A DNA stretch of 64,000 nt from a virus. Taxonomy: Duplodnaviria > Heunggongvirae > Uroviricota > Caudoviricetes. Positions 36,246 to 47,684 of the stretch are shown one piece after another; the stretch's first letter is position 1, and every line of letters begins with the position of its first letter. The position numbers and the translations under genes were made by a program. Location: IMG/VR virus record IMGVR_UViG_3300042934_000212; one strand, 5' to 3'. The notes below the pieces were generated by a model. The model worked only from the letters and a program-made list of their open reading frames with translations, was not told where the DNA came from and ran no database searches.

Positions 36246-37511
36246 TTAATCCTCTGACTTTAGTAGATACTGGTTGTTGATAACTTTAAAGTGAATAGTT
36301 TGTCCATTAACTTTAACAGTACTTTTATATACATCACCTTCTGCGATTGGATGAGTAATACTTGCATGTTCAGCAGAAGCTAGTGCTTCTTTAATAGAAC
36401 CATAAACTTCAAAGAACTTGATAATATCACCCTGTGGAACAATCTGGACACCAAGTAGTGCAGTAATTTCCAAGAAATCAGCATCATCTAGGAAGTTCTG
36501 ATTATCTACATCCCAAATACGGAAACAATAGAACTGATGTTCAGTTAATTGTTCACGGTTGCCCTGAATACCCGGACCCATACATTCACCCTGCAATGCA
36601 AGCTGGCGATCATGTTTCTCACAGTACTCTTTTAGACGTGCTGGAATATCATCTTTAATAGCTGCTTTCCAGAATGCAGTACTTTCATCAAACTTCAATG
36701 CAAGATTACGAGAACAAACTACTACCTGAGAATCCTGCCACTGGAAAGGATAAGGTTTAGTTTCAATTACTTTAAGTTCCTGTAGTTCTTCATTCCATTC
36801 AACTACTTCATCATCCACTTTCTCAACAAAGAAATCTGGATTGTTAAAGTACGCAATAGTCTGACTAGAGCCATCAAGCTTTAGTGACTTACGGAATGGA
36901 ACATCAGTCATAGTCTGACTGAATTTACCAAATACGTTCTGAATACGATCTTCATCAGTTTTTGGAACTACGATTGGGAAGTTACCAGCAACTTTAGCTT
37001 TACCAGCTCCAGTTCCACCATTACGTTCGTCTGGACGTTCGTACTTGGTAACGTTTAAGTACTGCTCAATACCGTGACGATTTTCTTCAAGATCACGAAG
37101 AATATCTTTTGCATTACCCATAATAGTTTCAGCACTTGGCTGGCAGCAATACATTACATTATTATTAATACGATAGAAGAAATCTGCAAATGCAATTACT
37201 GGTAGTGCAAGACCCTGAGAAAGTTGTTTACGTAATTTGATTGACTTCAGACGAATACGGTCAACACCATGTTCATCAGTTTTTACGCCACTTTTTGCAA
37301 GGAAAGAGAAGCGTGGATCTTGTGCCGGAAGATATGAATCAATCTCAAAGAACACACAGTAATCACCAACTTTAAATTCATCTTTCTTTACAACTACCTG
37401 CCAACCATCAATGATTGCAAGTACAATTAGATCTGCACCTTCAATTGGCTGAATATCATTAATTTTACGAACAGTTACCAGTTTACGACCTTCAATTACT
37501 AGTTGACTCAT
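36246..37511 (-). CDS. ATP-dependent RNA ligase (Rnl2/DRB0094 family) with N-terminal OB-like domain
   Basis: RKLVTVRKI..GWQVVVKK..FFEIDS N-domain; motif I KLDGSS, LQGECMGPGIQGN, EGDVYK, FKVINNQYLL. Confidence 0.9.
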   Translation of the reverse strand: MSQLVIEGRKLVTVRKINDIQPIEGADLIVLAIIDGWQVVVKKDEFKVGDYCVFFEIDSYLPAQDPRFSFLAKSGVKTDEHGVDRIRLKSIKLRKQLSQGLALPVIAFADFFYRINNNVMYCCQPSAETIMGNAKDILRDLEENRHGIEQYLNVTKYERPDERNGGTGAGKAKVAGNFPIVVPKTDEDRIQNVFGKFSQTMTDVPFRKSLKLDGSSQTIAYFNNPDFFVEKVDDEVVEWNEELQELKVIETKPYPFQWQDSQVVVCSRNLALKFDESTAFWKAAIKDDIPARLKEYCEKHDRQLALQGECMGPGIQGNREQLTEHQFYCFRIWDVDNQNFLDDADFLEITALLGVQIVPQGDIIKFFEVYGSIKEALASAEHASITHPIAEGDVYKSTVKVNGQTIHFKVINNQYLLKSED

Positions 37512-42758: not shown

Positions 42759-43124
42759 TTAGCACAAAAAAACGAACTTAGGATTATAGTTATTACACAA
42801 CGATCTGAAATTACCAGACTCCGTATCTCCAAACAAAAACAAAAAATCACACTCTAAATCTAAATCTCTGTAGGATTTATCAGTAGTGAAGTGCAAATTA
42901 TCACTTTGCTGTACTGGATAATGATTGTCAAAATTGACACAAACTACAACAAAATCATCTGAAGAAATCTCTTTCATGGCATTAAAAATACCAGATGCTT
43001 TGTCATCATTGTGTCTGTTAATTTGAACATTATTAAGCCTATAGCTATATAAGTTCATCTCAATTAAAATTAGAAAGTACTTACTCATTACATCATAGAA
43101 GTACTTGTTATCCTCTAGGTTCAT
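42759..43124 (-). CDS. Hypothetical protein directly downstream of the candidate large RNA
   Basis: GGAG SD; 121 aa. Confidence 0.6.
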   Translation of the reverse strand: MNLEDNKYFYDVMSKYFLILIEMNLYSYRLNNVQINRHNDDKASGIFNAMKEISSDDFVVVCVNFDNHYPVQQSDNLHFTTDKSYRDLDLECDFLFLFGDTESGNFRSLCNNYNPKFVFLC

Positions 43125-43134
43125 TGCCTAACTC

Positions 43135-43765
43135 CGTTAGTCAAGAATTTCGTTATTCTGTACTCGTTAGCACTCGTACTGAATTAACTCAATTCAATTA
43201 TATTACGTTTAACACTTTATACTGACGGGGTTTGTTGATCCATTTGCATCCCCCCGCAAGGGAGAACGAAAAAAAGTCAGAATAATCTGACGGTAGTAGT
43301 CTTACCTCTGAATTTGTAGATTTTACTCAAATTTTAGACGCAACTTTACTGTCCAAAAATAAGTAGTAAACACTGGCGGGTTGTCCGGTTTCCAGTTACT
43401 ACAGTCGCATACAACGGTCGGAGGTTTCTCATTTCTCCGCATATAGTACTTGCTAATTCAGCAACAAATACTATTGATATTCTGTCGAATATCTCCCTTT
43501 CAACAGGGTTGAGTATGCACTCAATATGTCTATCTAGGGCGTTTATGTTTTCTTACACGCCTTTATTGTGCCGCATTGCCGTGATTCGTAGGCTTAAGTC
43601 GCTTTGTATGACTGCTAGTACTCTAACGGGTTTCATTTGCACATCGTACTGATTGAACTACTCATCTGCCATCTACTTGTCGATAGGATCAGGTTTTAAC
43701 TATTCCTTGTTAAAGGATCAATCAGAGTTATATAAAACAAAGGGAAGACCAATTAAGACCTTCCC
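43135..43765 (-). ncRNA. Candidate large structured non-coding RNA (~630 nt), or a promoter-driven replication origin
   Basis: No minus-strand ORF of 60 aa or more; core lines 45-50% GC versus ~35% in the flanking gene; at least 12 hairpins; dedicated promoter ending 3 nt before a G-run 5' stem. Confidence 0.6.
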
Positions 43766-43769
43766 CTAT

Positions 43770-43798
43770 ATTATACCACAAATTTTAAAGTTGTTTCA
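43770..43798 (-). promoter_or_regulatory. TGAAAC-N17-TATAAT promoter
   Basis: Minus strand TGAAAC aactttaaaatttgtgg TATAAT. Confidence 0.8.
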
Positions 43799-43802
43799 CT
43801 TT

Positions 43803-44063
43803 TTAATCTTTATAAAAAGAATCATTGTAGTGTTGGGTTTGAACCAGATATTCGGGATCGATATTTTCTGGTTTGATATTATCATTTAAGAACTTGATAG
43901 CTTCTTCTTCTGTATTAAAGTACAGACGAGTGTCAGTACCTTTTTCACAAAGGAAGCGACTATGGTCATAGTCCATTTCGTCATGGTCTTGCATACAAAC
44001 AACTGTCAATATCTGGTCGTCATTAGCAGTACGGATAATACGATAATACACATCGTTCCACAT
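43803..44063 (-). CDS. Hypothetical protein
   Basis: ORF track. Confidence 0.6.
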   Translation of the reverse strand: MWNDVYYRIIRTANDDQILTVVCMQDHDEMDYDHSRFLCEKGTDTRLYFNTEEEAIKFLNDNIKPENIDPEYLVQTQHYNDSFYKD

Positions 44064-46741: not shown

Positions 46742-47254
46742 TTAATGTCCACAATCATAGTAATCATGTTCGATTGTTGGTTTATCACCAGTTAGATCGA
46801 CATATACGATATAATCAGTGTGATAAATTTCTTCAATTAGCTCATCTAAGTATTCTACTAGTGAATCTACTTTTTCGTTATCTTCCACTGAGTAGGTATT
46901 GATTTCATCAAATCCTTCCCACTCTCGTAGTTCTTCATCATCCTCAACTTCACCGTTACTAAGAAAATATGCAATACCAATTCCATATTCCGATAGTTCA
47001 CCGAAGTCATTCCACTTACTTCGTTGTGTACATGAGTAGTAGGTTTCACTCGAATGGGTACATGCATCACCATCGTTAAAGCCAGGTGTGTATCCTTTGA
47101 TGATAATTTTATTAAGACCTACAACCGACTTAAGCTCGTTAAGAATGTCAGTAAGAATGTCTTTTTTATTATCACGAATGAATACGTATAGATCTTGTCG
47201 TGCTTTGGATGAAGCAGCACTTAGTTCTTTAAATTGTTCAAATGAATTAGTCAT
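46742..47254 (-). CDS. Paralog 2 of the TPx[FW]NDGxxCxH family
   Basis: GYTPGFNDGDACTHSS ... YYDCGH; start reassigned to MTNSFEQF. Confidence 0.7.
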   Translation of the reverse strand: MTNSFEQFKELSAASSKARQDLYVFIRDNKKDILTDILNELKSVVGLNKIIIKGYTPGFNDGDACTHSSETYYSCTQRSKWNDFGELSEYGIGIAYFLSNGEVEDDEELREWEGFDEINTYSVEDNEKVDSLVEYLDELIEEIYHTDYIVYVDLTGDKPTIEHDYYDCGH

Positions 47255-47255
47255 A

Positions 47256-47684
47256 TTAGTATCCACAGTCGTAGTAGTCAGTTTTAAATGTAATATTGCC
47301 GTCAATGATAACGAAACCAAACATGTAGTTAGTACCTTCACGTTCTTCTAGAATTACGTCAATAAGTCCTAGTTCAGTTTCGATAGCACGTGCTTCGTCG
47401 CGAGTCAGATTATTGTACTCAAATTCAGTTTCATCAATTTCATTTGCTTTGAAAACTTGGTCAATTGCTTCTTCGTTCATATCAAGTACTTCAATAGAAG
47501 ACCAGTGTTCACATGCGTCACCATCATTGAAACCTGGAGTGTAACCAACGATGGTTCCACACGTTAGACCTGGGTATTTGATACCCAAATCTTTGATAAT
47601 CTCTTTAATGATAGTATCTGAATGTTCACTAATTAGAGATAGATATACTTCACGAGCGGTTTTAAATTGTTCTAGAATGTTCAT
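47256..47684 (-). CDS. Paralog 1 of the TPx[FW]NDGxxCxH family
   Basis: GYTPGFNDGDACEHWS ... YYDCGY; TAATG coupling to the upstream NTase. Confidence 0.7.
   Translation of the reverse strand: MNILEQFKTAREVYLSLISEHSDTIIKEIIKDLGIKYPGLTCGTIVGYTPGFNDGDACEHWSSIEVLDMNEEAIDQVFKANEIDETEFEYNNLTRDEARAIETELGLIDVILEEREGTNYMFGFVIIDGNITFKTDYYDCGY

Follow-up and report, generated by a model that had tools for sequence, protein, structure and literature searches.

The 678-nt gap at 43125-43802 of the 64-kb stretch of phage DNA analysed here (the window) is read, with moderate confidence, as the gene for a large stand-alone structured non-coding RNA that is probably needed in quantity and works through its fold. 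The conserved core extends from about 43765 to 43220 on the minus strand and is followed by a structured tail that continues to 43128 (about 640 nt altogether). At least a dozen helices and two pseudoknots are preserved in this RNA by compensatory change, and on the minus strand only. It is a member of a previously undescribed family of 0.55–0.65-kb RNAs, which among phages is confined to the RaK2/GAP32/121Q-like jumbo phages; full-text searches found no description of the family in the literature. The original prediction of a promoter-driven, non-coding, structured RNA made from the minus strand as a unit of its own has held, one of the copies being found alone between genes of the opposite strand; the kinship with ROOL and GOLLD and the Ro/TROVE partner that were proposed along with it have not.

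As had been noticed, there is only one long gap in the otherwise coding window: 43125-43802 is the sole internal stretch of at least 350 nt without an ORF of at least 60 aa. The expected G+C enrichment is also present, with 40.6% G+C in the core vs. 34% in the flanks and 36.4% in the whole window. All window genes around the gap lie on the minus strand, and the order of elements on this strand is TGAAAC, TGGTATAAT, a terminator-like hairpin, roughly 550 conserved nucleotides, some 90 nt of A+U-rich tail, a terminal hairpin, and the ATG of the next gene at 43124. An equivalent gap of 650–700 nt, likewise unannotated, is found in Serratia phage BF, Pectobacterium phage CBB, and Salmonella phage Munch, and the gap DNA is about 80% identical in relatives even where the flanking genes cease to align. 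A cluster of very small protein-coding genes overlooked by annotation is hardly credible here, even if ORFs of 30–40 codons have been annotated inside the region in Yersinia phage fHe-Yen9-04 and Erwinia phage Hallingskeid. No coding signal was detected in the gap, where open frames are no longer than those of shuffled sequence; only 12 of 54 indels are divisible by three, and in orthologs the longest sense frame (39 codons, 43442-43323) is shortened or has no start. Substitutions track the helices rather than codons, and a coding region was rejected on frame lengths, indel sizes, and substitution pattern alike.

The minus-strand TGAAAC/TATAAT promoter of the original prediction was recovered by a consensus scan (43770-43798), in which 10 of 12 positions match and an extended −10 is present: TGAAAC occupies 43798-43793 and TGGTATAAT 43778-43770. 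An extended −10 promoter of the same type precedes all 35 non-redundant copies inspected. In the nearest complete genome (G001, 355 kb), the class TGRRAC-N12-15-TGnTATAAT is represented by 33 gene-strand sites and by none on the opposite strand, and five of the 33 drive copies of the RNA; the class looks like the main sigma-70-type promoter set of the phage. Transcription probably starts at about 43765 (43762-43766), 5 nt past the −10 hexamer. An adapter-flanked insert in one RNA library (X2) ends exactly at 43765, which is weak evidence since such data are contigs and not mapped 5′ ends. The hairpin seen next to the promoter is real (43766-43741, with a U-rich run), though it is terminator-like, lies outside the conserved core, and is present in some paralogs only; in orthologs, its stem is kept while its sequence varies. 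Probably, it terminates the upstream gene 43803-44063, and the start of the RNA overlaps it.

Metatranscriptome contigs from several libraries cover 43217-43765, and one contig of 99% identity (43466-43751) is among only three that its run yielded on the 20 kb examined. The contig ends at 43288 and 43217 adjoin the two CCGUCAG repeats of the RNA (see below). A 121Q copy is likewise represented in many wastewater RNA libraries. Such contigs show neither ends nor strand and could come from phage DNA, and they are not proof of transcription because neighbouring genes are covered too; an abundant RNA would agree with them. Two other spots, 36273-36504 and 47039-47271, also recur as near-identical contigs in two or three RNA libraries; they lie inside the ORFs 36246-37511 and 46742-47341, which are possibly very highly expressed genes.

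For the family, 63 non-redundant copies were collected. The 5′ domain (43729-43563) is described by covariance model R1, which was built on a MAFFT alignment and to which all 63 copies were aligned; they score 76–161 bits, and the window copy scores 151.9 bits (E 5e-31). The domain comprises P1 (43725-43718/43656-43649), the P1a hairpin (43717-43704), P2 (43692-43666), P3 (43643-43639/43571-43567), and P4 (43629-43626/43582-43579), and it contains the near-invariant CACGGCAAUGCGGCAC (43583-43568). In this model-fitted alignment, which is biased towards the structure, 98.1% of 1675 cells form standard pairs across the 63 copies, and 422 of the 453 cells unlike the commonest pair (93%) still pair. 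Both sides have changed in 23 of the 27 pairs. Double-change cells number 387 vs. 112 ± 8 in shuffles, and sliding the partner by one to three columns leaves no more than 48% paired.

Downstream of the 5′ domain, the part 43509-43561 holds the hairpins P5 (43561-43538) and P6 (43524-43509) with a conserved single strand, CUAGAUAGACAUAU, between them (43537-43524). It is followed by a central paralog-specific domain (43507-43419) of three hairpins (43493-43476, 43472-43445, and 43439-43419), in which compensatory changes are seen among orthologs. One loop of this domain, CUGAAUU (43461-43455), forms the covarying pseudoknot PK2 with AAUUCAG at 43314-43308, just past P8; five column pairs of PK2 are 98–100% canonical with two to four pair types each, and 26 Watson–Crick switches occur there without any G-U or A-C. 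The 3′ domain (43422-43220) was taken from a plain MAFFT alignment (A6) fitted to no structure, in which P8 (43403-43399/43319-43315) is 99% paired with all five pairs compensatory, P9 (43396-43392/43376-43372) is 100% paired with four of five compensatory, and the pseudoknot PK1, between GUUGU at 43415-43411 and ACAAC at 43384-43380 (GUUGY with RCAAC in the family), is 100% paired with three of five compensatory. Further along, the domain carries the CCGUCAG repeats R1 (43293-43287) and R2 (43228-43222) and a C/G hairpin (43264-43250) with 56 G-U and no A-C. The stem claimed at 43276-43291 proved real as part of a hairpin with a run of seven U (43291-43269); it is optional, being absent from some paralogs, and conserved, covarying structure continues past it. 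The A+U-rich tail (43219-43128), whose architecture recurs in most paralogs and in the copies from bacterial islands described below, includes a miniature P1-like hairpin (43195-43158) and ends with the terminal hairpin CUAAC-GGA-GUUAG (43140-43128), where seven of eight pairs covary. The terminal hairpin overlaps the ribosome-binding site of the next gene, holding the GGAG of ATG 43124, and the transcript of the window copy probably runs on into that gene.

Parsimony on the tree of copies gives 151 independent Watson–Crick switches for the 5′ domain and some 100 for the remaining helices, or about 250 in total. The ratio of G-U to A-C is 147:4 overall and 46:2 in the 5′ domain; therefore, the pairing exists on the minus strand of the window only, as had been claimed for the first stem, which needs G-U pairs. 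Most of the local stems listed at the outset (43704-43717, 43538-43561, 43509-43524, 43476-43493, 43443-43474, 43419-43439, and 43363-43402) turned out to be covarying helices. The long-range pairing proposed between 43134-43140 and 43623-43629 is not conserved: 43128-43140 makes up the self-contained terminal hairpin, and ACCCGUUAG at 43623-43631 is nearly invariant. Genuine long-range pairing is provided by P1, P3, P4, and P8, along with the two pseudoknots. Several 3′-domain helices put forward by RNAalifold (CGG/CCG, GAC/GUC at repeat R1, and two 2-bp helices) were dropped, as their pair counts failed; if they are kept, only 78% of changed cells still pair. The two CCGUCAG repeats vary in parallel, not in complement (A6), and no common pairing partner was found for the two CGUCAR repeats. 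The window copy has all family hallmarks at the expected places, namely the extended −10, P1–P4 with CACGGCAAUGCGGCAC, the CGACCGUUG...CAACCCGC pseudoknot, GGGGGGAUG, and the two CGUCAR repeats.

Some internal repetition was observed as well. The tail segment 43195-43158 is a miniature repeat of P1 and of the strand after it (UCAGUACGAGUGC vs. UCAGUACGAUGUGC in the core at 43653-43639), which might have arisen by partial internal duplication or might serve as an alternative partner in pairing. In the XaC1-type copies and the copy from a Silvania island, hairpin P1a bears a 40-nt insertion (columns 18-63 of alignment A4) that repeats the core motif ACCCGUUUAG. The palindrome AGTACT occurs 757 times in the phage genome, 6.4-fold more than the 119 expected, and 128 times in the window vs. 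21 expected, including two sites inside the RNA (43445 and 43617); probably, it is a phage-wide regulatory or protein-binding motif.

Six genomes of RaK2/GAP32/121Q-like phages were searched, and each carries four or five full-length, dispersed copies: five in BF, CBB, and XaC1, and four in 121Q and Munch. The five full-length copies of G001 lie at 13.1, 69.8 (equivalent to the window copy), 149.6, 233.0, and 312.4 kb, all co-oriented on the strand that has about 90% of the genes. The gaps between them measure 57–83 kb, and five points placed at random on a circle would have a minimum gap this large with P of about 0.002, with the proviso that related genomes are not independent. Copy 3 of BF is located between the endonuclease VII and baseplate hub genes, both on the opposite strand, and its orthologs in several phages are followed by a bidirectional terminator; flanked in this way, the unit can stand alone. 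In the group of GAP32, CBB, BF, and RaK2, the five paralogs form five orthologous clades. The copies of XaC1 and 121Q group by genome with their number and spread kept, which indicates concerted evolution; concerted evolution with a kept copy number suggests that dosage or position may matter. Altogether, 71 GenBank phage records match the RNA. As for neighbouring genes, an HNH homing endonuclease gene is found directly upstream of copy 2 in Xanthomonas phage XaC1 (L020:448-1083) and two genes upstream of copy 2 in Salmonella phage Munch (L002:3903-4541), and a gene for an ADP-ribosylglycohydrolase comes directly after copy 4 in Serratia phage BF (L163:3441-4370).

Full-length copies scoring 120–147 bits with model R1 are also present in the chromosomes of E. 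coli (2 of 5426 genomes), Citrobacter amalonaticus, Silvania hatchlandensis, and Serratia fonticola, in every case within a small integrative island. In Citrobacter and Silvania, the copy lies just downstream of a large serine recombinase gene, with a cI-like S24 repressor and an HTH_35 protein encoded nearby; in E. coli, an integrase gene disrupted by IS3 is situated 1.7 kb upstream. The islands of these three also have small unknown genes and a resolvase gene near the copy, and the Serratia island has two ParB/RepB-like genes. The island copies branch at three different points of the tree, which implies at least two or three separate captures. When 185,579 species genomes were scanned for the pattern, three true hits only were obtained, and model R1 found no match in 150 other Enterobacterales species genomes.

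The island family itself is widespread, since its conserved 118-aa core protein has more than 200 relatives at 75–95% identity across Enterobacterales. Besides this protein, it comprises an integrase or large serine recombinase and a small resolvase, with the cI-like repressor and the HTH_35 protein in most island types sampled and a variable cargo (e.g., SLATT_5 or DUF4326/DUF488/dual-OB); it may be a family of satellite or defence islands. The RNA is absent from six related islands of three types sampled in Klebsiella, Yersinia, and E. coli. In the Yersinia enterocolitica island, a non-coding stretch after the integrase gene (L177:5341-6005) is crowded with five AGTACT and 14 GTAC (2.1 GTAC expected); it lacks the RNA and occupies the matching position, and AGTACT is the motif enriched in the jumbo phages. 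Next to the RNA, no convincing homologue was found as a protein partner shared by islands and phages; the matches dismissed comprised spurious ORFs overlying the RNA, a DUF4326 protein at a distance of 6 kb, a weak match of a gene from beyond the island, and a match of 33 residues in another place. Downstream of the RNA copy in the E. coli island (L053:9900-10260), there are three close repeats TATCGATCG(T/G)T, maybe operators or iterons, and the RNA-bearing island of Silvania encodes a 561-aa protein with an ADP-ribosylglycohydrolase domain (L167:3813-5498).

The RNA matches no family in Rfam. A cmscan of the whole window against 4227 Rfam 15 families gave no match at the gathering score, and for the window locus and 14 paralogs, only chance matches to unrelated small RNAs appeared at E ≤ 10. 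Membership of ROOL (RF03087), GOLLD (RF01998), OLE, or HEARO was thus rejected for want of a covariance-model match, as was identity with tmRNA, tRNA-like RNA, RNase P RNA, and group I/II introns, the element being intergenic and not within a gene; ARAGORN found no tRNA or tmRNA genes in the window. ROOL and GOLLD are large ornate RNAs of bacteria, phages, and prophages, often phage-borne, whose function is not established and which form multimeric cages. The present RNA resembles them in its several hundred nucleotides, its intricate conserved fold, and its own transcription unit; it differs in the enterobacterial hosts of its jumbo phages (not mainly Firmicutes and relatives), in the four or five diverged, evenly spaced copies per genome, and, in the window, in having no adjoining tRNA genes. 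The suggested partnership with a Ro/TROVE protein is not supported: no TROVE domain (PF05731) was found in the nearest genome or in four RNA-carrying relatives, in a search whose control genomes did give matches. A Y RNA or YrlA identity was discarded, there being no Rfam Y RNA match and no TROVE gene in these five RNA-carrying genomes.

With respect to gene organisation only, the family is reminiscent of bacterial rRNA operons, which are also dispersed, co-oriented, strongly promoted genes for structured RNA with concerted evolution within genomes; there is no homology, and the RNA is much smaller. A phage from a clade related to RaK2/121Q/GAP32, PA5oct, has four lncRNAs (ncRNA001-004) defined by RNA-seq as ORF-free plus-strand units of 0.24–0.62 kb, two of which account for 1–5% of phage reads at three time points sampled; paralogy among them is not reported (PMC7318152). 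They show that this phage group makes large non-coding RNAs. PA5oct ncRNA004 (619 nt; L169:817-1435) carries a TTGACA-type promoter, has opposite-strand genes on either side, and finishes at a terminator, a layout analogous to that of copy 3 here. No homology with the PA5oct lncRNAs was detectable (nhmmer --max, E > 1), and the best match of model R1, with E of 0.49, falls elsewhere in the PA5oct genome.

Among other explanations of the locus, a replication origin with a structured pre-primer RNA, like ColE1 RNA II or T4 oriF/oriG, is the main rival, though rather unlikely. The folded RNA of about 550 nt would let its 3′ part (the G6 run and the A+T-rich tail) hybridise persistently with the template and prime the leading strand, five spaced copies would serve a 350-kb genome, and the islands would be replicated by enzymes of the infecting phage or the host. 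The 57–83-kb spacing speaks for such an origin, as do the distance from the promoter to the G-rich/A+T-rich zone, similar to that in RNA II (the length of ColE1 RNA II being the yardstick), and the conserved CCCC..GGGGGG element followed by an A+T-rich tail with hairpins. So do the captures, at least two or three, by small islands without a recognised replication protein, once beside the ParB/RepB-like genes. Plasmids with a T4 origin replicate in T4-infected cells, and the sense-strand G-T wobble would also suit hairpins in a displaced DNA strand. In common with ColE1 RNA II and the T4 origins, the locus has a strong promoter, a transcript of about 550 nt with a fold that could govern whether a hybrid forms, a G-run close to the 3′ terminus that precedes an A+T-rich stretch, and portability to other replicons, and with the T4 origins it shares several copies per genome. 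However, the roughly twenty covarying helices, the two pseudoknots, and the near-invariant loops far exceed what known primer RNAs need, and there is no homology. The cumulative GC skew, one of the tests proposed for an origin, has no inflection at the copies and follows transcription. Neither a plus-strand promoter-like site for an antisense regulator of the ColE1 RNA I type (43650-43770) nor an Rfam RNAI match was found, and the promoter class is common to about 28 ordinary sites. The T4 middle-promoter mechanism specifically lacks support: the promoter is of the extended −10 sigma-70 type without a recognisable MotA box, although the A+T-rich tail is present, and no match to the MotA C-terminal domain or AsiA was obtained in a search in which control genomes were silent too, so that it had no positive control.

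A cis-acting leader of the downstream genes, modifying RNA polymerase (by processive antitermination like HK022 put, or through a nut-like site in the tail) or controlling translation of the next gene, is quite unlikely. It is the probable passage of the window transcript into the next gene that makes a leader role possible, and in the window copy and most others that gene is on the same strand with no strong terminator between; if the tail belongs to the RNA, the internal hairpin and U-run are read through, and the GGAG of ATG 43124 is held by the terminal hairpin. The tail motif UUCUUUGAC with a hairpin may bear a loose likeness to boxA/boxB. Against a pure leader role stands copy 3, which has opposite-strand genes on both sides, a bidirectional terminator after it in several phages, and no operon downstream; a processive antitermination leader, which always lies between a promoter and the operon served, was rejected on the BF copy. 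In addition, the genes downstream of different paralogs are unrelated, and the size and complexity of the RNA go far beyond those of known leaders. Very unlikely is a selfish or DNA-level repeat (a mobile remnant, a recombination hotspot, or a protein-binding array) conserved by spread or gene conversion. The multiple copies in phages and bacterial islands alike, their homogenisation within the XaC1 and 121Q genomes, and the HNH homing endonuclease genes near copy 2 would agree with it; however, spread and gene conversion do not make hundreds of compensatory double changes and a strand-specific excess of G-U, the five orthologous paralog lineages hold their positions across genera, and terminal repeats, a transposase, or target duplications are lacking.

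For a stand-alone RNA working through its fold, the following mode of action can be envisaged. Host RNA polymerase would transcribe the RNA from the start of infection, and the RNA would act in trans. Its compact fold would do the work, whether as the core of a ribonucleoprotein, as a particle that assembles itself, or as a machine akin to a ribozyme, and not pairing with any single target. Multiple genes would serve mainly for dosage, as in the case of rRNA genes; a need for dosage would account for the homogenisation of copies in some genomes alongside a preserved copy number. The bacterial islands that captured the RNA might exploit it or turn it against the phage. A cis-acting DNA or RNA signal would agree no less well with the even spacing and with the repeated capture by islands that lack replication genes. 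In its most novel form, which is put forward only tentatively, the proposal is that of a new class of RNA machine. The RNA, about 0.6 kb long with several pseudoknots and produced in bulk by four or five genes, would be a ribozyme or a self-assembling RNA or RNP particle required for infection by RaK2-like jumbo phages, and a widespread family of enterobacterial islands would have captured its gene repeatedly to exploit or poison the phage.

For the annotation of these phages, the RNA would fill four or five gaps per genome, each of about 650–800 bp as measured in Serratia phage BF. Large intricate RNAs of no known job are rare, and OLE, GOLLD, and ROOL each opened new RNA biology. The phages concerned infect E. 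coli, Klebsiella, Salmonella, and other enterobacteria, so that genetic and structural studies should be feasible; support for the fold is unusually strong, and each genome offers up to five natural variants. The even, co-oriented layout of the copies and their capture by islands provide handles on the function, be it that of a dosage-dependent particle, a primer at origins, or something targeted by satellite or defence islands.
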